A program made the translations under genes and the position numbers. The notes under the pieces were generated by a model. It was given only the letters and a program-made list of their open reading frames with translations. It ran no database searches and had not been told where the DNA came from. DNA of 42,187 nt from an uncultured bacterium (GTDB lineage Bacteria; Patescibacteriota; Gracilibacteria; Absconditabacterales; Absconditicoccaceae): the NCBI GenBank assembly GCA_937906635.1, contig CALCYP010000036.1, positions 1-42,187 on the forward strand. Direction: 5' to 3'. Numbering within the stretch: position 1 is the stretch's first letter; each line of letters starts with the position of its first letter. This document shows, one piece after another, positions 5,446 to 31,572 of this stretch.

Positions 5446-7821
5446 TATATTTCATCAAATTGAATAATCATCATCTTCTTGTCCTCCTTTTTCAAAGGAG
5501 GTGTCACGAAGTGACGAAGGATTTTTAAAAATCCCTCTGGCTTCGCCATCTCCCTTCCCTGCTGAGCCCGGGCACGGTAAAAAGGGAGACACTTTTTTTA
5601 CTACTCATGAATTATCACAGTCTTTCATTGAAAGACCTACTTTTTCTCTATCTAAATCTATACTAACTACTTTCACTTTTACTTGCTGTCATACTGAAAC
5701 TACATCAATTGGGTTTTTCACAAAAAAGTCTGCCATTTGTGACTTGTGAACTAATCAATCATTGTGTAATCAGATATCTACAAACGCTCCGAAATCTGTC
5801 ACATTTCTCACGATTCACTCTAACTCCATTCACTCTTGTAAATCTTTGATTTCCAAAACATCTGATTTAAATACTGGAGCCTGAATTTCGTCACGAGGAT
5901 CCAATCCTGGTCTCTCCAATTCTGCTAATACATCTTTCATTGTCTCAATTCATATTCAATATTTCTCAGAAAGGGATTCAATTCCTTGTAAATTAAAATC
6001 CTCCCTTCCCCCCTTAATAAGGGGGGCAAACTTTGACAAGTCCATTGGTAATTTCAAATCTTTTTCCTTGATTCAAAACTCTTTTTCTATCATTTCATAA
6101 ACTTGTTTGTGGATTTCTGGATGAATTCATGTCTGATCCAATACTTCTTTTCATCATTTAATCCTCATAAATCAAATCGCTTGTTCATATGCTTTTGGTC
6201 CAAGTCATTTCACCTTTTTTATTTGAGATTTGCTTGTAAATTCTCCATTTTCATCTCTATATGCTACCAAATTTTTGGCTACACTTTCAGTCATTCAGGC
6301 CAAATATTGGAGTAATGTATAGTTGGCCGTATTTACATCTACTCAAACTGAATTTACTACATCTTCTACTTTTTCATCCAATTTTTCTTTCAAAAGTTTT
6401 TGATCTACATCATGCTGATACTGTCATACTCAAATTGATTTTGGATCAATTTTTGTAAATTCAGCCAATGGATCTTGAACTCTATGTGCTATAGAAATTG
6501 CTCATCTGACTGTCACATCAAGCTGTGGATATTCACTCTGAGCCAATTTTGATGCTGAATATACTGATGCTCAAGCTTCTGATGTCACCATATATTTGAT
6601 ATCCAATTTATATTTTTTGATGAAATCAGATACAAATTTCTCTGATTCTCTACTTGCCGTTCCATTTCATATGGAAATCAAATCTATATCGTACTGATTT
6701 ACTATTTTCAAAAGTTTTTCTTCTGATTCCTCTATCTTGTTTTGTGGTGCGGTAGGATAAATTACATCATTATAAAGGAATTTCCCAGTCTTATCCACCA
6801 CTGCCAATTTACATCATGTCCTAAATGCAGGATCAAATCCTAATACTGTAAGTCATTTGATTGGTGGAGTAAGCAATAGATTTTTCAAGTTCTCACCAAA
6901 AACTTTGATTGCTGCTTCATCTGCTCGTCTCTTTTTGTCTGCTCTAATTTCTCTCTCAATTGATGGCAAAAGTAGTCTATCTAATCAATCTTCTATCGCT
7001 TCGATGAGATAGCAAGATGAAGTATTCGCATTATTTGGCAAAAAATAATTGTTTGCAAAAGATCTGATTTTTTCATCAGACATTTTTAATTTTACATTTA
7101 GTTGTTTTTCATTTTCAGCTCTATCAATGGCCAAATATGCATACGATGGCACATAGGTGATTTGTTTCGAATATTCTTTGTAAATTTTATATGTTCAATT
7201 TTCTTCAAAAGTCTTGGTTGGCTTCGTCGTGACGATAGAATTAATTTCTTCATGAGATTTAATTTTCTCTCTCAAATTAGCATGATCAGAGACATCTTCA
7301 GCGATAATATCTTTGGCTCACTGAATAGCTTCTGCTACATTTTTCACTGAAGTTTTTACATCTCATGTATCTTTTACAAATTCTTTTGCTTTCGCTTCAA
7401 ACTCCTCTTTGGTCAATGTAGCTTTTGCCAAAATTTCAGCAAGTGGCTGTAATCATTTTGCTTTTGCTATAGTCGCTTTTGTGTTTTTCTTTTCTTTGAA
7501 TGGCCTATATAAATCTTCTACCCTCGCCAAAGTATCAGCATCCAAAATTTCTTGTTTTAATTCTGGAGTCAGGAGTCATTTTTCATCAATCAGGCGGACT
7601 ACAACTTCTTTCCTTGCTTCCAAATTTTTGGTATATGTATACAAATCATTGAAATCACGAAGTTGCTCATCTGTAGCTCATTTTGTCAGCTCTTTACGAT
7701 AACGAGCGATAAAAGGGACTGTATTTCATTCATCCAAAAGCTGGATAATATTTGAAATCACTCAAGTCTCCATTCATGTCTTGATTTGAATTTTCTGAAT
7801 TAAATTTGTCATAATTTTCAT
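5446..7821 (-). CDS. tex: Tex-like transcription accessory protein (YqgF/HHH/S1 domains), 791 aa
   Basis: Motifs seen: NTVPFIARYRKE, VLGFDPAFRTGCKLAVVD, IGNGTASRESE, GVGQYQHDV. The S1 domain reads [27 protein letters not shown]. The last ~55 aa run through GC-rich hairpin repeats before TAG at 5446-5448. Confidence 0.9.
5483..5589. repeat. Composite GC-rich multi-hairpin element, lying inside the tex 3' coding tail
   Basis: Hairpins include cctccttt-ttc-aaaggagg, gtcac-gaa-gtgac, ggattttt/aaaaatcc and tctccctt...aagggaga. It is related to 26600-26707. Confidence 0.7.
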
Positions 7822-7913: not shown

Positions 7914-7942
7914 TTGACTTTTTACTGTAAAATTATTAATAT
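7914..7942 (+). promoter_or_regulatory. Sigma70-like promoter of cassette 1
   Basis: TTGACT (7914-7919), 17-nt spacer, TAATAT (7937-7942). An A-rich leader ...aaaaaacaaaaaATG follows. Confidence 0.5.
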
Positions 7943-7986
7943 TAATAACACAGTCAACTGAGTACTAATATAATAAAAAACAAAAA

Positions 7987-8268
7987 ATGACTATAAGTGA
8001 TTTAATGAAAAAGGGTGACTCCTTCGAATTTCTCCCAGGGATTCACAGTAGAGTTCTGCATGTAAAAAAAGGCGCCGACACAGTATCACATCAAATCAAT
8101 GAAGTCGGTGAGTTATTTGCTCATCGATTTAAATTGTATTACGATGCAAACAAAGAAAGATTTGTCGCTTCAATCGCAACCAATTCAAAGCCAAAAAAAT
8201 TTTTTGGTTCGAACATTGACTTGGTATTGTCCACTGTCAGAACTTGGGAAAAACGACAAGGAAATTAA
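7987..8268 (+). CDS. Hypothetical protein, 93 aa (UGA-free cassette 1)
   Basis: Runs ATG to TAA. All 6 Gly codons are GGN with no in-frame TGA. It has its own promoter and terminator. I recognise no family. Confidence 0.65.
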   Translation: MTISDLMKKGDSFEFLPGIHSRVLHVKKGADTVSHQINEVGELFAHRFKLYYDANKERFVASIATNSKPKKFFGSNIDLVLSTVRTWEKRQGN

Positions 8269-8284
8269 CTCATAAAGCTTATAA

Positions 8285-8312
8285 AGAGTCCGTAATTTAC
8301 GGCTCTTTTTTT
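8285..8312 (+). terminator. Intrinsic terminator
   Basis: agag(t)ccgta-att-tacggctct followed by a T7 run. Confidence 0.7.
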
Positions 8313-8326
8313 AATTACAAAAAAAA

Positions 8327-8390
8327 TTGCCCCGACGCGGAGTCGAATTTACCCCGTTATTCGGGGCCGCGATTTCTATCCTACAACTTT
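8327..8390 (-). pseudogene. Decayed tandem copy of tRNA-Arg
   Basis: 29 bp (8319-8347) are identical to the tRNA 3' end and its flank (8407-8435). D-loop-like ggatag and aatcgcgg are retained and the anticodon arm is missing. A ccccg-aataa-cgggg hairpin is inserted in the T arm. Confidence 0.5.
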
Positions 8391-8415
8391 ATAGACTTTC
8401 AAATTTAAAAAAAAT

Positions 8416-8487
8416 TGCCCCGACGCGGAGTCGAACCGCGATTGCAGTCTTCGCAGGACTACGTCCTATCCATTGAACGACCGGGAC
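8416..8487 (-). tRNA. tRNA-Arg (anticodon GCG), 72 nt, CCA not encoded
   Basis: Hand-folded cloverleaf: acceptor GUCCCGG/UCGGGGC; D arm guuc-aauggaua-ggac; anticodon arm uaguc-CU GCG AA-gacug; 4-nt variable loop; T arm cgcgg-uucgacu-ccgcg; discriminator A. Confidence 0.8.
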
Positions 8488-8568
8488 AAATTTCATGATA
8501 ACAATGACATATCATAATAAAATATTTTAAAATCGCAAGTAATATTTTGATAAAAAACTCAAAAAAAA

Positions 8569-8597
8569 TTTGCATTATTCTTTTTTCTGATTATAAT
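8569..8597 (+). promoter_or_regulatory. Sigma70-like promoter
   Basis: TTGCAT (8569-8574), 17-nt spacer, TATAAT (8592-8597). Confidence 0.55.
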
Positions 8598-8610
8598 AAT
8601 ATCTAGTCAA

Positions 8611-8661
8611 CAGTCAGTAGTCGGCAGACGACTGCAGACAGACGACCGACGACTGACGACC
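8611..8661 (+). repeat. Heptamer array (CNGACGA family) forming a long hairpin in the 5' UTR of the 8687 gene
   Basis: Units read cagtcag tagtcgg cagacga ctgcaga cagacga ccgacga ctgacga. Arm 8613-8624 pairs with 8646-8657 at 11 of 12 positions. The stretch is GC-rich and T-poor in an AT-rich context. Confidence 0.7.
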
Positions 8662-8686
8662 TTTATCTATTAATAAAAAACAAAAA

Positions 8687-9286
8687 ATGACAGAAACAAC
8701 AAACACAAGCAACGAAAATGTTGTACAAAAACACAATCAAATGGTTCAATTCGTAAAAAACACAATTTCTACAATTGAGACAGATTTGAAAAGAATGAAA
8801 TTAGTTTTGAATAAATTATCAAATTTTGATCCAAATGATCCAGCTTCTTTAGATGACAAAGAAGTTTCAGAAGCTATTGGTACACAAGAACTCAAAACTT
8901 ATACAGAAGAAAATGTACAAGTGGTTGAATGAAAATTCGATTGATATTTCATGGTCGGAGCTGATCAAAAGAAATATCCAGTCCCATTGAATTATTCAAG
9001 TAAGACAAAATTAGTTCCATGAGATATCTTGAAATTAAAAATCTTGGATAATGGACAATTCGTATATAAATTGATTAACCCAGTAGAAAGGAAGCATATC
9101 AGAGCCACATTGAGCAAAACTGATGATAATAAATTCACAGCTGTGACAGACGATGGACAGACATTCTTTTTGAATCAGGCTGCTGTCACATTCTTCAAAT
9201 GAAGACCTGGAGATGAATTATATATTTTAACAAATGAAAAAGACAATTGAGGTTTTGCAGCTATCGAAGCAGTAATTAAGAAATAA
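8687..9286 (+). CDS. Conserved hypothetical protein, 199 aa
   Basis: The standard-code ORF (81 aa) continues through 5 TGAs: ...VVEGKFDGYFMVGADQKKYPVPLNYSSKTKLVPGDILKL...FFKGRPGDELYIL...NGGFAAIEAVIKK, ending at TAA. The TGAs fall in PGD/DG-type turns. Confidence 0.8.
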
Positions 9287-9307
9287 GGATTTTATTTCAG
9301 ATAGAGA

Positions 9308-9346
9308 AAAAGCACTCATCCATTAAATAAATTGAGTGCTTTTTTA
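9308..9346. terminator. Hairpin terminator between convergent genes
   Basis: aaagcactca-N15-tgagtgcttt followed by a T run. Confidence 0.65.
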
Positions 9347-9362
9347 TTTTCCGAGATTTATA

Positions 9363-10895
9363 CTACTCTGCTACTTTTCTTATATCATCTATACAAAGCT
9401 GAATCTCTTTTATCTTTACAAGTGTTTTTGCATTATCCAACATCGGTTTTAATTCCCTAAGAAAGTCCAATCTTTTATCCTTGTATATATCTTCATAACC
9501 CTTTTTATTCCGCATTTTATTCAAGACTTCTTGTAAAAAATTTCTATCAATGGATCAATCATCACTTCAAAACAAATTAATTCGAGACTTTTCTCATAAT
9601 TTTAAATATCGGATATTTTTTATTTTGTCCAGTATCTGCTTTTCTCTATTTGGAATGGATGATTCCAGTAATAAATCAGCATTTTCTTTCGTCATTGAGA
9701 AAAGCGAAATAATAAAATCACTATCATCCACATCCAAAAAAGAATCTATCGTATGTTCCCATTTTTCCTCGTTCAACACTTGCTTTTTTAATTGTTCAAA
9801 TCCTCAAAAGTATTTTTTGACCATATTTTTTATTTTTTTAGATTTTATTTTATCAAAATCAATTGTTTCAACTATCATACTACCTTTTCTCAGTTCTTTG
9901 GCTCTCTCCTTTGCTTCATTAGAAAAAATTTCATTTTCTTCATCCTGTTTTTCTTTTGTAAGTCATTTTATCTGCCGAACTACATCTTCATCTTCCGAAT
10001 ATGCTCAAATCATCTCTCATATTTGTTCTTCATAGATATTTTTTTTTGAAAGTTTTCATTTCTTTGGATTGATAAATATAGATTTTCAAAAATCAATTAC
10101 ATAAAGCTTTCCATCATCTCAAAAAATTATATTTTTTTCATGTAAATCTCTATGATAAAATCAATTTTCATGTATTTTTTTAATAAATTTTCGTAATGCT
10201 AATCTATACTTTTCTCATTCTTTACTTCAAAATATTTTGATTTTACCTCTTTCTTTATAAAAAGCTTCATCGGCTTTTTTGCTATCATATTCATACCATT
10301 CCAAAAATATATGATCTACATCAGAATCAGATTTGGCAGATTTTATCCTATTCCTCAAATTATTTGCCTGTTGCTGTGCTACATTTTTTTCCATTTCACT
10401 TTTTCATGTCGCACTTGCTTCAATTTGCTTAGCTTTTGCTTCGATAATTCATTCAGCAATCTTATGATAAAGTGTTTTTCATTTTATGAAATCCATGATA
10501 ATGTAATTATCTCATTTATGAGAAAACATTCACCATAATCTTGGAATTTGAACAGGCTCTCATTCTTGTACTAATTTTCAAATTCTTTCATGTAACGAAT
10601 ATTCGTTATCAGGATTATTATCAAATCTCTTCTTTGCTACCAAAAGTTCCTTTTGCTCTCAATTATCATCCAAAACAGTAATTACAAAAATTTCTCATTC
10701 AGATCAAGAAGCATATATTTCATTTTTGTCTGATGTGTTAATTTTGTCTATAAGCACTTTCATTTGGTCTTCAAAAATTTTAGGATCCTTCAGTCTCATA
10801 TTAAAGTTCACATAAATTGCATTTTGTACATTCTGATTCAATTCTTGTCTTGAATTATTACTTTCAGACTCTATTTTTCTTTTATCTCATTCCAT
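9363..10895 (-). CDS. Eukaryotic-like (Hanks/RIO-type fold) protein kinase with an uncharacterised ~220-aa C-terminal region, 510 aa
   Basis: Gly-rich loop ASGSEGEIFVI, LLVAKKRF lysine, catalytic loop FYHRDLHEKNIIF, and DFG (YVIDFGKS). 21 in-frame TGAs were counted by hand. Confidence 0.8.
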
Positions 10896-10984
10896 ATTAT
10901 ATACTATAACAAATTAAATATTATAATTATACTCAAAAAACAATAAACAAGCTAAATTTTATACAGCTTTTTTAAAAAAATGAC

Positions 10985-11012
10985 TTGACTTATAATACAA
11001 AATACATATAAT
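10985..11012 (+). promoter_or_regulatory. Sigma70-like promoter of cassette 2
   Basis: TTGACT (10985-10990), 16-nt spacer, TATAAT (11007-11012). Confidence 0.55.
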
Positions 11013-11034
11013 TAAAATTCAAAAAACAAAAAAA

Positions 11035-11304
11035 ATGTTGAATTTTGAGATTTCAAAAATCGCTGTTGGCAATCCGAACTCAGCAGAGTTCAACTTTGCG
11101 ATTAAAAATCAGCAGCAAACAATAGCTCTTGCCAAGTACCTAAAAAGTATTGGCATCAAAGGACATGATTATGAAGGGCTTGAGGATGAAGTTATTTCTG
11201 CAAACATATGTATTTGGGCAGACGACATATTCATCGAGCAACTCATAAAAGAGTTAAGCAAGTGAAATTCACTTGCTTTATTTTTATTTGAAAAATTTTT
11301 GTAA
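11035..11304 (+). CDS. Hypothetical protein (UGA-free cassette 2): 76 aa to the first TGA (11263-11265), 89 aa to TAA under code 25
   Basis: All 4 Gly are GGN. The only in-frame TGA lies in the terminator stem. I recognise no family. Confidence 0.6.
11256..11289 (+). terminator. Intrinsic terminator overlapping the 3' end of cassette 2
   Basis: aagcaagtg-aaatt-cacttgctt followed by tatttttattt. Confidence 0.7.
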
Positions 11305-11344
11305 AACAATATTAAAGTATCTGTTTATATCAAAAAATATTTTC

Positions 11345-12244
11345 ATGAACAAAGCAAATGAGCATAGCAAAGAACTATTGGAAAAATATTTGAGAGAATC
11401 TACCACAAATCCCGAAAAAAATAGATTTTTCATATTAGTATGACCTCACGGAATTTGAAAATCCGATATCGCAATACAATTATCAAAAATCATTTTATGA
11501 GATTTTTTTTATAATGATTTTTTGCATATCAGAGATTTTTCAGGACAATTATGAAAGGAACATGAACTAAAGGTCGAATATAAAGAGGATAATAAAACCA
11601 GTAAAGAATTATTTGATACATATTGATACAAAGACTTATGAACCAGAGAAATCAACGAATGGCTATCGCTATCTCCTGCCGGTACAAAAAAAATATTATT
11701 GCTGGAAAATATAGAAAGGATGAACAAAGCCGCCATAAATGCTTTTTTGAAAACATGTGAAGAGTTGCTACCAAATTGTATCATTTTAGCCACAAGTAGC
11801 AATAAATCCAGAATTTTGGATACAATCCTCTCCAGATCTATAATAATTCCATTTTTTGAATATACAGAAGATGAGCTTTTGAAATATTGTGATGAAAAAT
11901 GATATTTTGCTTGAGATAATAATTTAAAAGAATTAGTTTGTTTGATGAGCCAATGAAAAATGTGAACATTAGATTTATTTCACGAAAAGTTATCTGACAA
12001 CGAAGAATTAAAAGATAAGTTCACAAGCATAATTCAGACATTACAAAATTCTACCATTTGAGTAAAATACCAAGCACTGCTTGATATAAACACTGCATGA
12101 TTTACTGAACAATTTTTGGATTGATTAATTGCATATTACATCCAAAAAAATCAATTCGATTTGGCACAAAATTGGTTGAATGTTAGGAAAATCATTTGAA
12201 CAAACGTAAGGAACGAAAACTTGCTATTTTCTGGATTAATCTAA
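11345..12244 (+). CDS. holB: DNA polymerase III delta' subunit, 299 aa
   Basis: Motifs seen: ILVGPHGIGKS and KILLLENIERMNKAAINAFLKTCEELLPNCIILATSSNKSRILDTILSRS. Confidence 0.85.
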
Positions 12245-12302
12245 TCTTGACTTACAACAAATAATGTTTAACATTATGATTCATAAACAAAAATAATCAA
12301 TT

Positions 12303-12623
12303 ATGGTCAAATTTGTTGTTATATTTTTAGTCGTGATAACATTAGCTGTAATTTATTGCTCATTGTATGCTTTAATATATGGGAAACACAAATGGATTTT
12401 AGCTATTGTTAGTACAACATGTACTGTCGTTTTAGTCCTATTCATTCTACACCTATTGGGAATTACTAACTATATAACTATATATTTAGGAAAACCCAAA
12501 TGGGTAATGCTAAGTATGATAATATGGATATTTACCATAGCTATTATTCTAGACAAAGTGGAAGAAAGACAAGAAGATGAAAGACAAAAAAAGGCTTGAT
12601 TATCAAGCCTTTTTCATATTTAA
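12303..12623 (+). CDS. Small 3-TM membrane protein (UGA-free cassette 3): 98 aa to the first TGA (12597-12599), 106 aa to TAA under code 25
   Basis: Three hydrophobic helices and a charged tail EERQEDERQKKA. All 3 Gly are GGN. A TTGACT box lies at 12247-12252. The TGA lies in the terminator stem. Confidence 0.6.
12591..12614 (+). terminator. Intrinsic terminator overlapping the 3' end of cassette 3
   Basis: aaggcttga-tta-tcaagcctt (9-bp stem) followed by a T-rich tract. Confidence 0.7.
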
Positions 12624-12692
12624 AGAAATATCTCATTTTGAAAAAAAGGACCTCGAGGTTTCAATTGAAACAAAATACCAGGGTGTAATTCC

Positions 12693-13670
<978 letters not shown>

Positions 13671-13746
13671 TTTTTATTTTTTTGATATAAACTATTTTGC
13701 TTATACTGATTTTCAAGGCTTTTTGCAAGATTAATTGAAAAAATAA

Positions 13747-13817
13747 GTCATTTCGAATCAAAGATGAGAAATCCATAAATGTTAAATGGATTTCTCCTCG
13801 TTCCTCGTCGAAATGAC
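13747..13817. repeat. Nested inverted-repeat (MITE-like) element
   Basis: Outer inverted repeat gtcatttcga ... tcgaaatgac and inner hairpin gagaaatcca...tggatttctc. I estimate about 80% similarity to 28630-28702 by eye. Confidence 0.75.
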
Positions 13818-13833
13818 ATATTTTAATTATTCA

Positions 13834-15456
13834 TTAATTCAATCATGCTTTCACAAGTCCAAGAAACAATGGATGTGGTCTATTTAGTCTTGATTTAAAT
13901 TCTGGATGGGCTTGTGTAGCTACAAAATATTTGTGTTCTGGCAACTCAATAAATTCAACCAGACTTCCATCTGGAGATTTTCCAGAAAATACAAGTCAAT
14001 TTTCGGATAATATTTCATGGAAATTTGGATTTACTTCAAATCTATGTCTATGTCTCTCTTTCACTAAATTTTTGGCTAAATCAATTTGGTTGAATTCTTT
14101 ATATAGATGCCAAACTTTGGTATCAGGAGTCAAAATAGCATCATAGGAACCCAAACGCATCGTTCATCATTTATTTGTAATTTGCTTTTGGCTTTCCATA
14201 ATATCTACTACATTAAATTCATTGTCTGGAGTAAATTCTCCACTATTTGCTTTTGGAAGTTGGCATACAGATCTAGCAAAAGCGATAGTAGCGACTTGCA
14301 ATCACAAGCACAATCATAAATATGGAATATTTTTTTCTCTACAGAAATTCGCTAAATTTATCATTCATTCGACTCCTCTATCTCAAAATCATCATGGAAC
14401 AACGATTCAAACGATATTTTTCTGGTTACATAAATTTCTCAAATCATCTTCTCGTCATTCTGATTCATAATTTTCAGTATCAATTCGTTCAAGATTTATC
14501 TTTGTATCATAATATGCTCAAGCATGCTTCAAAGCCTCAACGACACTGATGTATGAGTCGTCCAAATGTGTATATTTTCATGCCAATCCTATTGTAAGTT
14601 CTCTATTCGGATTCTGAAGTTTGTAAAGTAAGTTTTTTCGCTCTGTGAGGTCTGATTTTTTGTCTTCATTAAATAATCTTTTTATGATTAAACCATCCAA
14701 TCATTGATTTTGAAATGAAATTGGAAGTTCATAAATATTTTGATCCAAATTTTCGATTATTGAATCTTCTGACATATCACAAAACATTGATAACTTTTTC
14801 TTTAATCAATCTTGTAATGGACGATTTGTCCTACAAATCAATATATCAGCTTGAATTCCGAGTTCTCTAAGTTTTATGATAGAATGCTGGATTGCTTTTG
14901 TTTTCATCTCTCCAGAAGTCGTGACTGTGACAATCGGTGCTACATGGACAAAAAGCACGTTTTCTTTCCCAAGTTCATATCTGAGTTGCCTCATACTCTC
15001 TATGAAATGTGGTCATTCAATATCTCAGACTGTACCACCAATTTCAATGATTGCCACATCACTTCAATTTGCTATTTTTTGAATTCTACGCTTTACTTCG
15101 TTTGTGACATGAAGAATTACTTGGACAGTTTTTCATAGGTAGTCTCACCTTCTCTCTCTTTTCATGACAGATAGGTAAATTTGCCCCGTTGTAGTACTGG
15201 AAAATCTCGTCAATTCCTCATCAATAAATCTCTCATAATGTCCTAAATCCAGATCTGTCTCAAATCAATCATTTGTGACAAAAGTCTCTCCATGTTCGTA
15301 TGGAGACATCGTCCCTGCATCGATTTGCAGATAAGGATCCATTTTTCCCATTGTCACTTTGTATCAAGCAGACTTTAACAATCTTCCAATTGAAGCCGCT
15401 GTAATTCATTTACCTAAACCAGAAATTACTCATCAAGTCACGAAGATTAGTTTCAT
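13834..15456 (-). CDS. pyrG: CTP synthase, 540 aa
   Basis: N-terminus [61 protein letters not shown]. The internal segment reads [28 protein letters not shown]. Confidence 0.93.
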
Positions 15457-15535
15457 TGATATTTTTTAGGTGGTAAAATAATTATATACTCATGATTAAT
15501 GAATTTTCAACACAAAATTTTATTAAATTTTTCTA

Positions 15536-15563
15536 TTGACTTATATTATTTGATAGATATATT
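15536..15563 (+). promoter_or_regulatory. Sigma70-like promoter of cassette 4
   Basis: TTGACT (15536-15541), 16-nt spacer, TATATT (15558-15563). Confidence 0.5.
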
Positions 15564-15597
15564 CTCATAGTAAAAGCAAACAAAAAACATCAGCCAT

Positions 15598-16218
15598 ATG
15601 AGAGAAAAACACATCAGGAAATGCCCCTGCAAAGAGAAAAGACAGAATTCTCTTTCTGAAAAAATGAACGAATTAATGTACCGTTTCGGCAAAGATCCAA
15701 ATGGCACTTTAATTGGATTAGAAATTAGCGATATAATACTACTACTGGGCCAAAAAGGAAAGATTTCGGAAAAAGACTACGAACTCGTATTCGATACTTT
15801 TCTTAGCCGAGCTAGTGTTCGCACCCTTATCAAATTTGCTGAGAAATACGGCAATGAAGATAAAAGAGACAAAGTCCTGAATACTATTTTTTCTAGGAAA
15901 AGCTATGAAGACGGAAGACTTGTCTATCTAAACGCAAAGAAGAGGGAAAACAAGCTCAGAGGGATTAAGATGATGAAAGATGCATCGTACAATTCATTCA
16001 TCTACATCCTGCACAAAGCCATCCAACATCACGACCTTTTGATGCAAGGAGAATTGGATGGAACAGTGAAAAATGAAGTCATAGATTGCCGCAAAAAATG
16101 GCAGACAATATACGGCTTCGAAAGGGAAATCGGTTCTGATTACCAGGATTCAAAGTATAGAGTTGAAATACTCAAGAAGCTTTTGGATCCTGATATAAAA
16201 AGTATCCAACTGAACTAA
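15598..16218 (+). CDS. Hypothetical protein, 206 aa (UGA-free cassette 4)
   Basis: Intact in the standard-code track, ATG to TAA. All 12 Gly are GGN. CGN Arg codons are frequent. A hand count of the first ~120 nt gives about 37% G+C, against about 32% for the start of ruvB. I recognise no family. Confidence 0.7.
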   Translation: MREKHIRKCPCKEKRQNSLSEKMNELMYRFGKDPNGTLIGLEISDIILLLGQKGKISEKDYELVFDTFLSRASVRTLIKFAEKYGNEDKRDKVLNTIFSRKSYEDGRLVYLNAKKRENKLRGIKMMKDASYNSFIYILHKAIQHHDLLMQGELDGTVKNEVIDCRKKWQTIYGFEREIGSDYQDSKYRVEILKKLLDPDIKSIQLN

Positions 16219-16222
16219 CTCA

Positions 16223-16248
16223 AGGAGCTAAAATGCTCCTTTTTTTTT
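16223..16248 (+). terminator. Intrinsic terminator
   Basis: aggagc-taaaat-gctcct followed by a T9 run. Confidence 0.75.
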
Positions 16249-16339
16249 AATCAAATTTCATATTGAAATATCTCTCACCTTGATTATATAGGTATATTAT
16301 GTATAAAAATTTATATATTTACTTATATTCTACAAAAAA

Positions 16340-18169
16340 ATGAAAAGAAAAAATCTTGTTCTAATCTTTGCTTTATTTGCATTAAGCTCAATAGTTCCAA
16401 ACTATATTTTTGCCGATAGTGGCGATAATGAATCTACTTGAACCATATTGACGGTATCAACAAATAACAATACCTGAGATACTATTCAAGAGCCTCAAAT
16501 TTTGATTGATACAGGGACAAAAACTATTTATGTATCTGGATATGTAGATACTTGAACTTCAAGCACATGAGCAAATAATACTTGAGATACTGCTACTTGA
16601 AGCATAAATACATGAAGCACAGAAACTTGAACACTGACTCCTCTGACTTGAAGCAATCTGACTTTTGAAGAAGAGTTTGCTTTGGCTCTGTCATGGATGT
16701 ATAATAATTGACTGACAATGTACAATAATTCTGGTGATTATAGAATGTATGATTTGTTGACTCGTGAAGAGGCTGCAAAAATTATATGACAAGCATATAA
16801 TGTATTTGGTTTAGATACTGGAGTAGTAAAAAATAATTCTTGTACTTTTGATGATGCAAATTTATTTAATCCTACTCTATCAGTGCATATTGCTAATGTG
16901 TGTCAATGGTGATTATTCCAAGGTTCAAATTGAAAATATTTGCCAAGAGAAAATCTCACAAAAGCTCAAGCGATGGCTGTATTAATTAGGATGATTGAAT
17001 GAAAAATGTCTTATGAATTGCAAACTCCTTGGCGAGAACAATATTATAACAAATGAAAAATGATTGGGTTGACCAATATAGAAAATATAAATGAATTTGA
17101 TCACGATTTGGCGAGATATGAAATTGCTCTTATGGTTTATAGGATGAGGACAATCATGGAAAATAATCAAATGAAGACATTAGCATTAAATGCTATGGCA
17201 TGAATTGAAAATAGCAAAACTTGAGTTATCGATTCACAGACTGTAATTGACAATCTATGAACATTAGTTTGATGAATAGATCCTTCTACCGATCCTGAAT
17301 TAGCTGAAGCTATTTACTGGATGTACGATAATTGATTAACTATATACAAGACAGTTGCTGACTTCAAACCATTTGATGTATTTACCAGAGAATGATGAGC
17401 AAAAATATTTGATAAATTCTCTGATATGTTAGGATTGTGAACGAGCAATGATTATCTACCAAATGAATGTAATTTCTCAGACATATCACAATTATCTGAA
17501 GAATCACAAAATCATATAGTAAATGTTTGTAAAAAATGATTAATCAAATGATCAAATTGAAAATTCAATCCATATGAAAATATGAATAAATCAACATTCA
17601 TTGTGGCTTTGATTAGGATGTTTGAATGAAAAACATTGGATGAAACTACTACTCCACGATGGAAAAATTATTTTGAAAAAGCAGAAGAATTGTGACTTGT
17701 GACAGCAGCTGATACTACTACATTTGATACACCGATTAGCAGATATGAAGTCGCCTTATTTTTGTACAAGTTTAATATAAGATACAAAATGTTAAATAAT
17801 TTGAATAATAATAGGATTTCAGATCAAGTAATTAGTACAGTCTCTGGATCCGTATTAGAAAATTGAAAAGTAGCTAATATTTATATTAATACCTCTCTTT
17901 TGAAACAATGAGCATTGGATTTGTGATATATAGAGATAATGTGAAATAGATACAAAATCGTAAAATCAAAAGAAACATCTTATTATTCAAATGGATTTGT
18001 ACGATACTGAGATATGTTTGATATAGCAACGGACGAAAAAATTGGAACAATAAACTTCATGGTAATGAACAATTATGTAATAGAATGAAAATTAAGATTT
18101 ACAGACAAGACATATGAAATTTCATGAGTTGAATGAACAAGTGCATATTATAAAATAACACAAATTTAA
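16340..18169 (+). CDS. Secreted SLH (S-layer homology)-repeat surface protein, 609 aa
   Basis: Signal peptide MKRKNLVLIFALFALSSIVPNYIFA, then a Thr/Gly linker. Repeated SLH-like modules follow, e.g. CTFDDANLF...VCQWGLFQGSNGKYLPRENLTKAQAMAVLIRM and CNFSDISQL...VCKKGLIKGSNGKFNPYENMNKSTFIVALIRM. Confidence 0.8.
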
Positions 18170-18171
18170 AA

Positions 18172-18270
18172 ATAGCTAATAGCCAATAGCTAATGGCTGA
18201 TAGCATTCATATTCGCTATTAGCTATATGCTATGTGCTATCAGCTGAAAATTTTACAATGTAAAATTTTC
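18172..18270. repeat. Inverted heptamer arms plus AT palindrome (composite intergenic module)
   Basis: One arm reads agctaat agccaat agctaat ggctgat agc and the other gctatta gctatat gctatgt gctatca gct. The palindrome gaaaattttac-aat-gtaaaattttc (18246-18270) ends 2 nt before the ruvB ATG. Confidence 0.85.
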
Positions 18271-18272
18271 CT

Positions 18273-19241
18273 ATGGAGATTAAGAAGATTAATATAGATA
18301 CTATACAGCTTGAGGACGAAAGTTTTAGACCTGATACTTTTGAAAATTTTATTGGTCAAGAGCATATCAAATCTGTTTTGCACACTGCTATGGAAAGTGC
18401 TGAGACAAGGAATAGTACAATGTGACATATTTTATTTTCTGGTCCAAGTGGATTTTGAAAAACTACTATGGCACACATTATTTCCAAACATAATCATGTT
18501 TCTATGAAAGCTGTGACTGGTTATGCAATCACAAAACCTGCTGAGATAGTTAGTATTTTGAATAATTTGGATGAATGAGATATTTTGTTTATCGATGAAA
18601 TTCATAGGCTCAGACCAAATGTGGAAGAAGTTTTATACATAGCTATGGAAGATTTTGTGATTGATATGGTAATGCCAGAATGATGAAATGTCAGAATACC
18701 TATCAATAAGTTTACTTTAATTGGAGCAACAACTAAACCAGAAGCCTTGAGTAAGCCTATGAAAAATAGATTTGTTTACGATTTCCATTTCATGGATTAC
18801 AATATTGATGAAAAAAAGCAAATTTTGAAAAAATATTTAGAAAAATATTGAGTGCCTGTAAAAGATGAACTATTAGATGAAATACAGAAAAAAGTAGATT
18901 CGGTACCAAGAGAAATTCATAATTTGTGCATCAAAATCAGAGATTTCTTTGTCACAAAGTATAATGGTAAAAAAGAATTTACACAAGAGATGCGGAAAGA
19001 CTTTTTGAGACACAGCAAAATTTCTGATGGATGAATGACTCCTCTTCACGAAAAATATTTGAATATATTGAGGGAAGCTAATAGACCATTAGGTTTGAAA
19101 TCTATTGCAATACAGCTCTGAATGACTGAAAAATGAGTAGAAGAAGATATAGAGCCATTGCTTTTGAAAATGTGAAAAATAGACAAAACAACTCAAGGTA
19201 GAATTTTGACAGATTGATATTGATACTGACTTTTTAGTTAA
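18273..19241 (+). CDS. ruvB: Holliday junction branch migration helicase RuvB, 322 aa
   Basis: Motifs seen: [65 protein letters not shown]. Confidence 0.93.
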
Positions 19242-19263
19242 TTTTTAAATTATAATAGCAAAC

Positions 19264-19680
19264 ATGCTTTTAATACCAAAATTTATTATATTAAAAACCG
19301 TATTTCCATTTCTTGCTTTTCTCGTTGCTTGGGAAGTAGTATGGAAAATAATAGCGATGTACAAAGCCGGACAACAAAAGGAGCTTTGATGGTTTATTTG
19401 CATATTTATATTTAATACATTTGGACTATTACCTATCATATACTTGTTGGTTGATAGCATGAAAAAAGATAATATTGAAAAAAATAATATTGAAAAAGAT
19501 AATATTGAATTATCAAAAGAAAATAATAATGTCTCTACTGAGACAACACAACCAAAAAAGGCATTGAAAGGAGGTGTAAAAAAATGAGAAAATGTAATGT
19601 CAGAAAAAAAGCAGAAAGGAATGCTAAGCGCTTCCTCAAAAACAAAACAAAAAAGCACACAAAAAGAGGTAAAAAAGTAA
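19264..19680 (+). CDS. DUF5652-like small membrane protein with a Lys-rich tail, 138 aa
   Basis: The segment VAWEVVWKIIAMYKAGQQKELGWFICIFIFNTFGLLPIIYLLV matches my recollection of the DUF5652 motif (WK..A.WKAA...WF....NT.GILPIIYL). It has 2 in-frame TGAs. Confidence 0.65.
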
Positions 19681-19716
19681 AAAAAACATGAAAAAAGTAG
19701 TCGGGTATCTATGACC

Positions 19717-19752
19717 AAGCCATCTAATGAATTTCAAAAGATGGCTTTTTTT
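19717..19752 (+). terminator. Intrinsic terminator
   Basis: aagccatct-N13-agatggctt followed by a T run. Confidence 0.7.
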
Positions 19753-19868
19753 GAATATTGTTTTATAAATATTTCTAAATACACTTGATTTTTTGTGTGC
19801 CTTTTGTAAATATTACCGTTGTATTGTCCGACATGGTGTTGGACATAGTAATAACTAAATCTATTTAT

Positions 19869-20165
19869 ATGCAAAAATTAAGTATTGTAGGGGCTGTACG
19901 AGTCCCTGAAGACATTCCAAATCTGGTTCAAAATCAAGGAGATGCCGAGTTAATTATGACTCCAAACTATGAATTTCATAGAAATGAAAAAGGTTACACC
20001 ACTAGAGCACTACTGAATGTAGATGGTACGAAGTATTTTATTACCCAAAACACGAAAGACCAATCTCTATCAATAGGCTATCTTGAAAAAGAACCAGACA
20101 AAAAAACTCGCAGAAAAATTAAAAAAATCGTTGATGCTAAGTTTTTTTGAGACAATAGACCATAG
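19869..20165 (+). CDS. Hypothetical protein (UGA-free cassette 5): 93 aa to the first TGA (20148-20150), 98 aa to TAG under code 25
   Basis: ATG at 19869, with an alternative ATG at 19833. Promoter-like TTGATT (19785-19790) and TAAATA (19807-19812). All 5 Gly are GGN. The terminator follows directly. Confidence 0.6.
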
Positions 20166-20186
20166 GCTTCCTATGGTCATTTTTTT
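20158..20186 (+). terminator. Intrinsic terminator
   Basis: gaccatagg-ctt-cctatggtc followed by aT7. Confidence 0.75.
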
Positions 20187-20300
20187 ATTTTTAACGCATA
20201 ACTACTGAGAAAACTCAATTTACTTGCTTTTGCTGTTTATTTGTATAAAATGAAAGTTAGTTAATTTTTTTGTAATTTTGATTTATTACATAATTTATAA

Positions 20301-21269
20301 ATGGATATAGGAAGTTTTTTGTATCAAAAAAAAGAGAAAAAAGCAAAAAATATTCGGTTAATAGTAACCACGATCATAATACTATCCTTTTTGATTGGGA
20401 TTATCCTATTGAATAGGACAGATACTAGACAAAACTTTGACTATTTTATTTGAGAAAAAATTTCTACTGAGTGAAAGATTTTTTATGATAATAATTACCC
20501 TACCAACACACACAAACTAGTAAATGAAAAGGAATCTTTCTGATTAAAAGATAATAAAATCAATTTGAATAATTTTTTGGATACAGATGTAATAATTGAT
20601 GGTAATATAAATGAAATTACACAAAAATATCCAATACTTACCATATCAAAGCTAAAAATTCCTTCTTATAAATTATCTATATCAGATAACAAATATTTTT
20701 ACACAAAAGATTTAATTTCGTTTGATTTTGAAAAAGATATTGATGTTTATTCGAATAAAATTGGTGGACAAATAATAATATATTATAAAGAAGAACCTAT
20801 GTTGTATGTAGATACATTTATTTGTAGCAATGTGACAGAAATACAAAATTGTGAAAAAATGAAAATGAATTATATCTTAGATTTATCAGAGACATTTGTA
20901 TCTACACTATGATATACTTTTTACAAAAACAATGAAAATTCTTGGGTCGCATTTAACGATGATAATATTTGATACATTTTTAAGGCAAATAGTGATGATG
21001 ATTTATTAAATTTATCTCATTTTATATATATCGTAGATTCCAAGTTTTTATCTGTAAATAAAGATGATTTGATATTATCTGGATGCTCCAATGAGAATAT
21101 AAAAATGGAAAAAATTTCGGAAATAACGAAATGAATATTAGATGATAATTTAATTAAGGTCTCTGTTTATTGAACCGATGTACAAAAAAATAAAATAATA
21201 TGTAAATTAAATATCGATATATTTGATGATTGGAATATAATAAATTCTTCTATTTCGCTCTCTGATTAA
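20301..21269 (+). CDS. Hypothetical N-terminally membrane-anchored protein, 322 aa
   Basis: TM segment LIVTTIIILSFLIGIILL, with the rest Asn/Asp/Lys-rich. It has 7 in-frame TGAs. I recognise no family. Confidence 0.7.
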
Positions 21270-28464: not shown

Positions 28465-28507
28465 TTTTATTAAATTATAATATAAAATTTGTTATAATAA
28501 CAACATA

Positions 28508-28536
28508 ATTATATCCAAAAAAAAAAAACTTGTCAA
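28508..28536 (-). promoter_or_regulatory. Consensus sigma70 promoter for the 28464 gene
   Basis: On the minus strand: TTGACA (28536-28531), 17-nt spacer, TATAAT (28513-28508). Confidence 0.6.
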
Positions 28537-28560
28537 ATTTTTGGCCACTTTTTTATCGCG

Positions 28561-28587
28561 GTCAGAACTGGTGTTTCAGACTTTTTT
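28561..28587 (+). terminator. Terminator-like hairpin T0
   Basis: gtcagaa-ctggtgt-ttcagac (one mismatch) followed by T6. Confidence 0.35.
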
Positions 28588-28629
28588 GAAAAAAGTGCAT
28601 TTTTTTGAAAAATTTTTTTTGAAAATTTT

Positions 28630-28702
28630 GTCATTTCGAACGCAGTGAGAAATCCACATAAATGTATACTGGATTTCTCGTCGTTTTACTCCTCGAAATG
28701 AC
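28630..28702. repeat. Nested inverted-repeat (MITE-like) element
   Basis: Outer inverted repeat gtcatttcga ... tcgaaatgac and inner hairpin gagaaatcca...tggatttctc. A solo left end (gtcatttcgaacg) follows at 28713. Confidence 0.75.
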
Positions 28703-28979
28703 ACCTTTCTCAGTCATTTCGAACGCTTTCTGTCCCCCTTACGAAGACGAAAGATTCCGATTTATCGGAAGGGGATAAAGGGGGTTTAAATCAACCTCCC
28801 CAACCACTCTTCGCGAAGGAGTGGATTTTTCTTTCTTCATATATTTAATTTTATTAAAAAAAACAAATAAAACAAATTTTATTATATTTTATCTCGAATT
28901 TGTCTTGACTTTTAATATCAAATTCATACAGTATATGCTGTATACATACCAAATATATTCTTTGCCATTTTATTTTTTT

Positions 28980-29013
28980 AGAGCCGGCTGAATTTCTTGC
29001 CGGCTCTTTTTTT
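28980..29013 (+). terminator. Intrinsic terminator A of the array
   Basis: agagccggc-tgaatttctt-gccggctct followed by T6. TTGACT lies at 28904-28909 upstream. Confidence 0.7.
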
Positions 29014-29108
29014 GTTTGATTTTTGTAAACTTTTCATTAAGATTTAGATTGAGATAAGTTATCTGCTTTTCTCTTTATTTTTGTTGGTATAAATAGTTAA
29101 TTGTAGAA

Positions 29109-29138
29109 AGGAGTCTTCGTATTTGTGGACTCCTTTTT
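29109..29138 (+). terminator. Intrinsic terminator B of the array
   Basis: aggagtc-N12-gactcct followed by a T run. Confidence 0.65.
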
Positions 29139-29227
29139 ATCGCTTGATTTTTTAGAATATATAGTTATACTCTTGTTAGACAACAAAATTAATTTTTTCA
29201 TTTTTATTTAGATTTTTGTTTTTTAAT

Positions 29228-29255
29228 GGGGCTATTATTATAGCTCCATTTTTTT
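29228..29255 (+). terminator. Intrinsic terminator C of the array
   Basis: ggggcta-ttatta-tagctcc followed by aT7. It is preceded by TTGATT-16-TATACT (29144-29171). Confidence 0.6.
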
Positions 29256-29365
29256 ATAAAAATATTTTCAAAAAAAGTATTGCAATTAAAAGAAAATTCC
29301 ACATATTGTATTTTGTTAAGGAGACTTTCTTCATAATTGTTTTGGTTAGTAATTTATTAGTGGAG

Positions 29366-29397
29366 GAGCCATTGCATGTCTTTGGCTCTTTTTTTTA
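29366..29397 (+). terminator. Intrinsic terminator D of the array
   Basis: gagcca-N11-tggctc followed by T9. It is preceded by a TTGCAA box (29280-29285). Confidence 0.65.
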
Positions 29398-29490
29398 TTT
29401 GTGTCAAATTTTTCAAAAAATCTTGAAATATGTTTTCTAATTTGTAGAAGTGAAGTGAAAGAATTTCTTTCTTCATAATGAGGTTTGAGT

Positions 29491-29520
29491 GGAGCCACAA
29501 TTTAGTGGCTCCTTTTTTTT
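29491..29520 (+). terminator. Intrinsic terminator E of the array
   Basis: ggagccac-aattta-gtggctcc followed by T8. The comEC stop codon (29502-29504, minus strand) lies in its loop. Confidence 0.7.
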
Positions 29521-31130: not shown

Positions 31131-31212
31131 GTCCCTTCGGGACTAAATTTTTAAATTTTTATCATCGCTGAGGGTTTCACCCTCAGCTAAAGATATTTAG
31201 TCCCTACGGGAC
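31131..31212 (+). repeat. Three-hairpin GC-rich element (copy 2)
   Basis: Hairpins are gtccc-ttc-gggac (31131-31143), gctgagggt-ttc-accctcagc (31167-31187) and gtccc-tac-gggac (31200-31212). The 23-nt and 12-13-nt spacings match copy 1. Confidence 0.7.
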
Positions 31213-31468
31213 TTATTTTTTTCCAATCAAGCCCTGAAAGGGTGTCATCTCATATAGCTAAAGATATTCAGTTCCTCTGGGACTTATTTTATTCCAATCA
31301 AGCCCTGAAATGGTGTCATCTCACATAGCTAAAGATATTCGGTTCCTCTGGGACTTATTTTATTCCAATCAAGCCCTGAAAGGGCGTCATCTCACATAGC
31401 TAAAGATATTCAGTTCCTCCGGGAGTTATTTTTTTCCAATCAAGCCCTGAAAGGGCGTCATCTCATAT
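31185..31468 (+). repeat. 71-bp tandem repeat, 4 copies
   Basis: Unit starts at 31185, 31256, 31327 and 31398, with a diverged fifth start at 31469. Each unit carries the hairpins g(t)tcc..ggga(c) and gccctgaaagggc. Confidence 0.9.
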
Positions 31469-31572
31469 AGCTCAGGGCAAGGCCCTGAGCGTTAATAAAT
31501 AAATTAAATTCAAGCCCCAACGGGGCGACATATCTCATCACTTCAGAATCTTGTTAATTTATATCGCAAATT

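Follow-up and report, generated by a model that had tools for sequence, protein, structure and literature searches.

A reassigned genetic code is usually thought of as applying genome-wide and as impeding gene flow. Can a class of genes within such a genome obey the standard code all the same? This question is raised by a chromosomal piece of an uncultured Absconditabacterales bacterium (the window; 42,187 nucleotides (nt), analysed at its full length), in which long open reading frames (ORFs) emerge only with TGA as a sense codon. An initial annotation had singled out five plus-strand ORFs, all of which are present, as looking written for the standard code; we refer to them as cassettes c1 to c5. 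Our analysis supports this view and adds a second signal, the use of CGA and CGG, which had not been considered before. The five ORFs read as real, monocistronic, protein-coding accessory genes in the standard code, within a host in which UGA encodes Gly and CGA/CGG apparently encode Trp. In the cassettes, Gly is never written as UGA, nor Trp as CGA/CGG, and codon usage is broadly foreign to the host. One gene class thus appears to follow the standard code for two independent reassignments.

Codon usage of the cassettes and of their host

Gene calling of the window under code 25 yielded 38 genes, and the other 31 called genes (hereafter ordinary genes) served as the comparison set for codon counts in the window. 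For comparisons between genomes, we used 17 loci, consisting of the window and 16 related Absconditabacterales loci that were fetched via pyrG, holB and homologues and are labelled with L-numbers. Identical copies of cassette genes are also present on contigs of the bioreactor metagenomes ERZ842383, ERZ842392 and ERR1278074/104.

Up to their standard-code stops, the five ORFs contain 6 + 4 + 3 + 12 + 5 = 30 Gly codons, and a recount agreed with the earlier one in that all are GGN and none is TGA. In the ordinary genes, Gly is encoded by 515 TGA and 269 GGN codons (515/784 TGA; Fisher p = 3.4e-14 against the cassettes), which corresponds to 66% TGA instead of the roughly 60% estimated initially. 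Within pyrG, TGA stands opposite Gly of code-11 homologues 111 times. Based on the per-gene Gly counts, between 0.06 (binomial) and 0.14 (beta-binomial) TGA-free genes are expected in the window, but five were observed, or two if strict code-25 ORFs are used; taken singly, the counts for c2 (4 Gly) and c3 (3 Gly) are weak. Within the five ORFs, TGA is common in the two other frames (13 and 24 occurrences) and absent in frame, indicating that the depletion acts at the codon level.

The second signal comes from CGA and CGG. Absconditabacteria have been predicted to read both codons as Trp and to retain tRNA-Arg(GCG) alone for CGU/CGC, and the same study inferred a single code for each genome (Shulgina and Eddy 2021, PMC8629427). 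A tRNA-Arg(GCG), reading only CGU/CGC, is indeed present in the window at 8415-8488. When ordinary genes were aligned between relatives, CGA was paired with CGA (80), TGG (60) and CGG (9) and with no Arg codon at all, and TGG was found opposite CGA/CGG 80 times. Moreover, CGA codons 273 and 324 of pyrG lie opposite W in Bacteroidales and Saccharibacteria (code-11 bacteria), and the Trp-type codons of the ordinary window genes are split into about equal halves (49 CGA/CGG vs 55 TGG). In these alignments, the ordinary genes of the lineage behave as if CGA/CGG were Trp, in agreement with the prediction. The cassettes differ in both respects: Trp is always TGG, and CGA/CGG are aligned with CGT, CGC, AGA, AGG or AAA, but never with TGG (Fisher p = 2e-16 for the CGA/CGG partners in cassettes vs ordinary genes). 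The window cassettes carry 0-2 CGA codons per gene.

Other codon shares also separate cassettes from ordinary genes, namely GGC (30% vs 1%), GAC (41% vs 14%), AAC (43% vs 14%) and TGC (67% vs 20%). A raised G+C, as suspected earlier, was found for c4 (G+C 0.37 and G+C at third codon positions (GC3) 0.42), c1 and c2, but not for c3 and c5.

Across the 17 loci, TGA-free genes form a discrete class without a continuum. In 235 genes with at least 8 Gly codons, the TGA fraction is unimodal at about 0.6-0.7 with a separate spike at 0. A general lack of TGA in short genes, which would have offered a trivial explanation, was not observed: TGA is used in 105 of 123 genes of 60-220 amino acids (aa) with at least 4 Gly codons, and the remaining 18 belong mostly to the cassette families.

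Cassette families, slots and divergence in place

Homologues of all five cassettes were found in related code-25 genomes, and none of these orthologues contains an internal TGA, the feature that could have argued against standard-code genes. In the c4 family (ten alleles), 0 TGA contrast with 118 GGN codons, and the 18 CGA/CGG codons (15 CGA and 3 CGG) are confined to Arg/Lys columns and never fall in Trp columns. For instance, a column of the LMYRFGK motif reads CGT CGT CGC CGT CGT CGA CGA, another one has five CGC codons aligned with CGA and AGA, and the conserved Trp is encoded by TGG in all 8 alleles having it. CGA/CGG account for about 13% of the Arg-column codons of c4, which we infer to be roughly the level of free synonymous use. 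The ratio of nonsynonymous to synonymous divergence (dN/dS) of c4 is 0.04-0.11 and its all-helical AlphaFold model has a mean predicted local distance difference test score (pLDDT) of 81; the low dN/dS and the confident model argue for a real protein that is selected as read in the standard code. Over all cassettes, dN/dS ranges from 0.04 to 0.4, consistent with purifying selection on the proteins in their standard-code reading. The alignments further show an interchange of CGA/CGG with Arg/Lys codons; this is clear for the c4 family and less so for c1, c5 and an unrelated 116-aa family.

The other families follow the same pattern. Four alleles of c1 (identity 88% for L040, 39-43% for L027 and 35% for L028) contain 0 TGA vs 25 GGN codons. 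For c2, the corresponding slots of L040 (5539-5829) and L030 (3879-4103) contain distant homologues that are likewise TGA-free, giving 0 TGA vs 14 GGN for the family. The four c3 alleles downstream of holB (window, L029, L027 and L028) have 0 internal TGA, 11 GGN, 10 TGG and no CGA/CGG codons, and c3 is predicted to be a membrane protein with three hydrophobic segments and a charged tail (EERQEDERQKKA). In the nine clusters of the c5 family (AlphaFold model with pLDDT 85), internal TGA is absent as well, with 19 GGN codons and 4 more in each of L047 and L048. L047 (JGI Ga0401708_2196274, Absconditabacterales) appears to be annotated in code 11: on this contig, c5 and the c4-like gene are called whole, in contrast to the core genes, which are broken into pieces of 30-110 aa.

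As noted before, the first in-frame TGA of c2, c3 and c5 takes the place of a standard-code stop inside or beside the terminator, and c1 and c4 end in TAA. The first TGA of every c3 allele falls at the end of the conserved region, a shared terminal position in or at the terminator hairpin, which differs in sequence in L028. In an alignment of eight c5 sequences, the column with the TGA of the window and L008 holds TAA in the other alleles, after a final F or I, which places this TGA at the stop position of the family. A three-sequence alignment, in which the c5 TGA lay opposite a GGT of L025, had suggested a conserved Gly; this interpretation was overturned by the larger alignment, where the family ends in F or I. 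After the terminal TGA, the next stop follows 13 codons on in c2, 8 in c3 and 5 in c5. Read in code 25, c2 continues to a TAA at 11302-11304 past the T run of its terminator, c3 ends at 12623 and c5 at a TAG at 20163-20165. L008 is an exception: its c5, read in code 25, extends by 60 codons across the terminator.

Comparison of the loci shows a constant intergenic location for each cassette, bounded by core genes; in relatives, these fixed slots hold very divergent alleles, unrelated standard-code genes or nothing. The neighbours are Tex, tRNA-Arg(GCG), DNA polymerase III delta' (holB-like), a class Ib aminoacyl-tRNA synthetase (trpS-like), pyrG, ruvB, a DUF5652 protein and greA; c1 is located between Tex and tRNA-Arg(GCG), and c4 between pyrG and a 609-aa gene. 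All c4 alleles with readable flanks are next to pyrG, between the same conserved flanking sequences, while the short contig of L044 shows no more than a downstream gene. Between the window and L025, the flanks have about 90% nucleotide identity (synonymous divergence (dS) 0.5-0.8), but identity falls to 60-70% for c4 and 40-55% for c5 at or near the cassette edges. Likewise, pyrG of L023 and L025 is 99% identical (proportion of synonymous differences (pS) 0.27), whereas their c4 alleles share 63% (pS 0.77), so that c4 similarity does not track pyrG similarity.

Unrelated TGA-free genes in the same slots include a DUF6440 lipoprotein with a terminal TGA (L025), a GNAT gene (L013) and a 192-aa protein (L012 and L016). 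In four genomes of more distant relatives, the c5 slot after DUF5652 holds the 116-aa TGA-free family mentioned above, which was ruled out as a distant c5 homologue (hhalign probability 0.4%). Some slots are empty, and the pyrG slot of L015 contains two host-coded, TGA-rich genes. It is therefore not true that all strain-variable genes are standard-coded, since these two genes and an IVP gene of L005 are rich in TGA. The latter (5906-6262) encodes a 118-aa 23S-rRNA-IVP (Avd-like) protein with 6 TGA codons, lies between uvrA and a 282-aa gene in a near-identical strain and is missing from the window. A diversity-generating retroelement as the source of the hypervariation was rejected as well, as the IVP gene is absent from the window and host-coded and the divergence spans whole cassettes.

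In three cases, pairs of cassettes could be compared with their flanks. For c1 of the window and L040, dS is 0.59 vs 0.56-0.59 in Tex and two other flanking genes (holB 1.13), with a dN/dS of 0.10 and a CGA<->CGC change at codon 90. The c5 pair of the window and L008 has a dS of 1.0 vs about 1.0-1.3 in pyrG, trpS, ruvB and the 609-aa gene (other flanks up to 1.8), and the c3 pair of the window and L029 a dS of 0.9 vs 1.2 in holB. The match of cassette and flank dS indicates that these three pairs diverged in place and were not re-imported. None of the 11 conserved Gly codons in the in-place pairs switched to TGA, while among flank sites with at least one GGN, 16/39 (41%, window vs L040) and 47/92 (51%, window vs L008) switched (P ~1e-3 by our own arithmetic). 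This argues that TGA was selected against in the cassettes during their residence, beyond a mere recent arrival.

What unconstrained drift may look like is illustrated by a 199-aa gene at 8687-9286. Of the roughly 11 Gly codons, 1 to 7 are TGA in its orthologues, which are 87-95% identical and in part NNC-rich. This gene may once have been a sixth standard-code cassette and may now be adapting to the host code.

Possible causes of the standard-code pattern

Our best reading of these data, which we hold tentatively and at a little less than even confidence, is that these small accessory genes form a flexible pool, whose code neutrality is maintained by repeated selection under standard-code decoding, with traffic with code-11-compatible elements as the likeliest cause. 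Genes of the slots would be exchanged among strains by recombination via the conserved flanks, and the most plausible setting would be traffic with the standard-code-compatible phages or mobile elements reported for these bacteria. Phages predicted for Gracilibacteria and Absconditabacteria are code-11-compatible, lack in-frame TGA and have TGA stops backed by nearby stops (Liu et al. 2023, mBio, PMC10746230). They represent the closest published parallel, and we rank element traffic as likeliest for this reason, despite the fact that no reservoir was found. In the resident cell, a terminal UGA would be decoded as Gly, and translation would proceed across the terminator as far as the next UAA/UAG, with a gain of 5 to 13 residues; on c2 and c3, the ribosome might run off at the transcript end. 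The product of each gene would also receive Trp at the 0-2 CGA codons. The initial annotation had considered either recent acquisition or code neutrality. The confinement to one clade, the constant slots and the missing gain of TGA in place favour maintained neutrality over simple recent acquisition.

Several results weigh against the proposed traffic. A tblastn search of c4 and c5 against 50,697 phage records gave no match, nor did a search of the c4, c5 and c1 families against 2.9 million IMG/VR contigs. An exhaustive search with a c4 hidden Markov model in 1.84 billion representative proteins returned only the clade itself and one spurious repeat protein, and all c4 relatives with readable context are in the pyrG slot of this clade. 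The flanks of the cassettes contain no shared direct repeats, integrase or att-like sequences, save the tRNA scar beside c1. In addition, c1 (L040), c5 (L008) and c3 (L029) kept the standard-code pattern while diverging in place.

Searches for function and mobility gave a similar picture. The proteins of c1-c5 have no significant match in Pfam or PHROGs (for c3, PHROGs gave only insignificant membrane-protein matches at E ~0.04), and PADLOC profiles found nothing at E <= 0.1 in c1-c5 and three other TGA-free cassette proteins. Models of c4 and c5 against the PDB, and of c4 also against BFVD, had no match at E < 0.04, with TM-scores mostly between 0.2 and 0.4, in line with the earlier impression that the proteins resemble no recognised family. 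For the c1, c4 and c5 families, detectable homologues outside this clade were not found. There are no phage hallmark genes near the cassettes, which are flanked by Tex, tRNA-Arg, holB, trpS, pyrG, ruvB and greA, and for c3, considered as a possible holin, neither an endolysin nor a lysis cassette was found nearby, its neighbours being holB and trpS. All five cassettes consist of one gene between a predicted promoter and a predicted terminator, at odds with the two-gene layout of toxin-antitoxin systems, and the cassettes are dispersed with promoters of their own, unlike a promoterless integron array. A direct-repeat search detected no attC-like boundaries, although no search for whole-region inverted repeats of the attC type was made. 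No integrase or recombinase ORF is present between Tex and tRNA-Arg. The combination typical of tRNA islets, a neighbouring tRNA and a direct repeat of its 3' end, is seen in c1 only.

Simple recent horizontal acquisition from standard-code bacteria or elements, under which code neutrality is not selected for and TGA has not had the time to appear, is rather unlikely in our view. It would account for the TGA-free genes from standard-code bacterial families in the same slots (DUF6440, E = 2e-12; GNAT Acetyltransf_5), for the absence of the L025 DUF6440 cassette from the window at a pyrG identity of 96%, for a codon usage and GC3 that are atypical of the host and for the position of c1 next to a tRNA with a partial duplicate; the graded gain of TGA in the 199-aa gene is what amelioration predicts. 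However, the c1, c4 and c5 families lack detectable relatives outside the clade, and alleles persist in the same slots at near or full synonymous saturation with no internal TGA (0 vs 118 GGN in c4), although Gly codons in the flanks flip quickly between GGN and TGA and c1, c3 and c5 co-diverged with these flanks. A further explanation, which we consider just as unlikely, is that the genes are long-term residents that give a correct product only under standard-code decoding, either in their own or in another cell. In a code-gated version, a standard-code phage would bring release factor 2 (RF2) and/or a tRNA-Arg(UCG), the host genes would then be made correctly, and mis-decoded or non-stop products would switch to correct ones. 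Alternatively, the genes would be expressed inside the standard-code host or prey of the epibiont, similar to T-DNA genes written for their recipient. Long-term residence is in line with the unswitched Gly codons of the in-place pairs, the CGA<->CGC change in c1 at a flank-like dS, the share of CGA in the Arg columns of c4, which resembles free synonymous use, and the restriction of the families to the clade and fixed slots. The deep allele classes with their discordant phylogeny point to an arms race or balancing selection, phages compatible with the standard code have been reported for these bacteria, and under host decoding c2, c3 and L008 c5 would have no stop before the terminator, which would silence them by ribosome rescue unless UGA acts as a stop. 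Against it, both a phage with RF2 or tRNA-Arg(UCG) and a system for nucleic-acid delivery are hypothetical here, and PADLOC, Pfam and fold comparisons gave no likeness to defence proteins or toxins. Host decoding might also be tolerated with 0-2 CGA codons per window gene, and the adjoining 199-aa cassette did gain TGA in some lineages.

Translational selection, by which very highly expressed genes shun reassigned codons as slow or error-prone, is very unlikely, even if the near-consensus -35 boxes, the strong terminators, the exclusive use of TGG for Trp and a shift to NNC codons, as known from highly expressed genes of many bacteria, point in this direction. The NNC and TGA fractions of the 235 genes are uncorrelated (rho -0.09, or -0.02 if the zero class is left out), the genes with zero TGA stand apart as a spike of their own, and genes with a high NNC fraction such as greA have many TGA codons. 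Furthermore, Leu usage in the cassettes spreads over more codons with no concentration on one, and codon efficiency cannot explain CGA/CGG at Arg positions. Chance, or a post hoc choice of short genes, is practically negligible in our view. The five genes were chosen for their lack of TGA, and c2 and c3 hold just a few Gly codons, but far fewer TGA-free genes than observed are expected in the window, most short genes use TGA, and the same pattern is seen again in independent homologues and for the other reassignment, CGA/CGG, as well. Taken together, recent transfer, expression bias and chance seem to fit the data poorly, and the code-neutral pool remains the explanation that we prefer.

Layout of the window and comparison with known systems

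The coordinates of the cassettes and of associated features are listed in Table 1. Consensus scans place an own promoter and an own terminator around a single gene in all five cassettes. The described -35 boxes, TTGACT in c1-c4 and TTGATT in c5, were found again; TTGACT is upstream of these four cassettes and of 2 other window genes. The terminator scan detected 19 terminator-like sites in the window vs 3.4 expected, including those of all five cassettes. The shared layout of promoter, leader and terminator proposed initially does exist in the five cassettes, but it is not unique to them, as the 199-aa gene is built alike. Apart from the stronger -35 box, this architecture is ordinary for monocistronic genes here.

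Table 1. Coordinates of the five cassettes and of associated features in the window.
Feature	Position	Strand	Details
c1 promoter-like site	7914..7942	+	TTGACT, 17 nt, TAATAT; consensus scan; motif 73 nt 5' of ATG
c1 ORF	7987..8268	+	93 aa; 0 TGA, 6 GGN, 2 CGA, 1 TGG; TAA stop
c1 intrinsic terminator	8290..8311	+	CCGTAATTTACGG followed by T run; scan
tRNA-Arg(GCG), partial 3'-end copy and downstream flank	8309..8347	-	39 nt, 90% identical to 8397-8435
199-aa gene	8687..9286	+	own promoter and terminator; leader identical to c1 leader over 21 nt
c2 promoter-like site	10985..11012	+	TTGACT, 16 nt, TATAAT; 11/12 consensus matches
c2 ORF	11035..11265	+	76 codons, then TGA 11263-11265; 0 TGA and 4 GGN before it
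c2 terminator	11256..11291	+	10-bp hairpin (11256-11278) and T run; TGA in 5' arm
c3 promoter-like site	12247..12274	+	TTGACT, 16 nt, TAACAT
c3 ORF	12303..12599	+	98 codons, then TGA 12597-12599; 3 GGN, 3 TGG
c3 terminator	12587..12615	+	13-bp hairpin enclosing the TGA
pyrG	13834-15456	-	ordinary gene, flank of c4 slot
c4 promoter-like site	15536..15563	+	TTGACT, 16 nt, TATATT; kept in all alleles
c4 ORF	15598..16218	+	206 aa, all-helical (model); 0 TGA, 12 GGN; TAA stop; GC3 0.42
c4 terminator	16222..16250	+	AAGGAGC...GCTCCTT, then T9; scan
c5 promoter-like region	19785..19815	+	-35 TTGATT
c5 ORF	19869..20150	+	93 codons, then TGA 20148-20150; 5 GGN
c5 terminator	20158..20186	+	9-bp hairpin and T run; TGA 8 nt upstream of hairpin 20158-20178

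Just past the c1 terminator, the 3' end of tRNA-Arg(GCG) and its A-rich flank recur as a 39-nt direct repeat (8309-8347/8397-8435, starts 88 nt apart), possibly a scar of integration or excision at the tRNA. The same tRNA adjoins the c1 slot in L027 and L040. A stretch of the c2 promoter, ttgacttataatacaaaata, is shared with the promoter of a c4-like cassette in L045. In the c5 leaders of the window (19824-19846), L008 and L025, a 9-bp hairpin with a 3-nt loop ends about 20-30 nt upstream of the ATG (fold z-scores -1.6 to -3.2); its sequence in the window is unlike those in L008 and L025. The adjacent DUF5652 gene contains three 15-nt tandem repeats in its interior (19454-19509), coding for KDNIEKNNIEKDNIE. 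Upstream of the 199-aa gene, a G/C/A-rich run with short GAC/GTC-type repeats (agtcaacagtcagtagtcggcagacgactgcagacagacgaccgacgactgacgacc) is located at 8598-8656, between a promoter-like site and the gene start.

Additional features were observed away from the cassettes. At 31185-31468, at least three (about four) tandem 71-nt units are visible as three overlapping copies of a 142-nt repeat 71 nt apart; GTCCC..GGGAC hairpins occur at and just upstream of this array, and weak matches to the Acido-Lenti-1 RNA lie just upstream. Another Acido-Lenti-1 match at 1216-1263 scores 35.2 bits, below the gathering threshold of 37. The G+C-rich ORFs 1051-1278 and 31329-31538, which overlap these Acido-Lenti-1 and repeat regions, are probably not genes. 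An AT-rich region of about 1 kb (28465-29500) has no ORF of at least 60 aa on either strand and no Rfam match. Finally, L001 (ERZ842383 NODE_330) departs from the window after a NUDIX gene, and its positions 17668-20621 have a GC3 of 0.54-0.78 and TGA-free PDDEXK_3 and DUF5689 genes, the latter with a TGA stop. By its domains and high GC3, this part looks Bacteroidota-like and would be either an assembly chimera or a large recent standard-code insertion.

The cassettes hold the standard code while neighbouring genes freely switch codons, which offers a concrete and testable handle on how genes pass or span the boundary between two codes. Another question on which they bear is whether phages, or contact between host and epibiont, impose standard-code selection on part of a candidate phyla radiation (CPR) genome. 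The combination of no TGA, Trp as TGG only and CGA as Arg may serve as a signature for the flexible gene pool of code-25 genomes. For annotation, one table per genome adds read-through tails to the cassettes; if CGA/CGG are Trp in ordinary genes, table 25 also mistranslates those, and public protein sequences show R for W.

In our literature searches, we did not come across any account of standard-code genes on the chromosomes of code-25 bacteria, but several known systems share individual traits. Phage morons, as described by Hendrix and colleagues, are reportedly extra genes with their own promoter and terminator between resident genes and are defined inside prophage genomes. Like them, the cassettes are stand-alone promoter-gene-terminator units with atypical composition that are present or absent among close relatives. 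Unlike morons, they are flanked by pyrG, holB, trpS, Tex, ruvB and other such genes, and several are syntenic across species. According to the amelioration concept attributed to Lawrence and Ochman, transferred genes are said to drift towards the usage of the host. The atypical codon usage and GC3, the tRNA beside c1 and the graded gain of TGA in the 199-aa neighbour are in line with this concept, whereas the ten c4 alleles, near or at synonymous saturation, still have 0 TGA and freely use CGA for Arg.

Genes in different codes within one genome are also found in crAss-like and Lak phages, where genome blocks are written in two codes and a gating of translation timing has been proposed (Borges et al., 10.1101/2021.08.26.457843; Mgcod, 10.1101/2022.06.29.495998). 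However, what is recoded in these phages is a stop codon of late genes, and their genomes encode suppressor tRNAs or release factors, while here standard-code genes are scattered over a cellular chromosome with a reassigned code and no known switching machinery. Closer are the predicted phages of these bacteria (PMC10746230), with which the cassettes share the absence of in-frame TGA, a backup stop soon after the terminal TGA and identical ORF calls in codes 11 and 25; integrated prophages in the same study are dense in TGA. In contrast to whole phage genomes, each cassette comprises one gene at a constant chromosomal site flanked by core genes, phage hallmarks are missing from the vicinity, and the CGA/CGG signal is outside the scope of that work. 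With regard to the code predicted by Shulgina and Eddy, the ordinary window genes fit, but the cassette gene class in the same genome does not.

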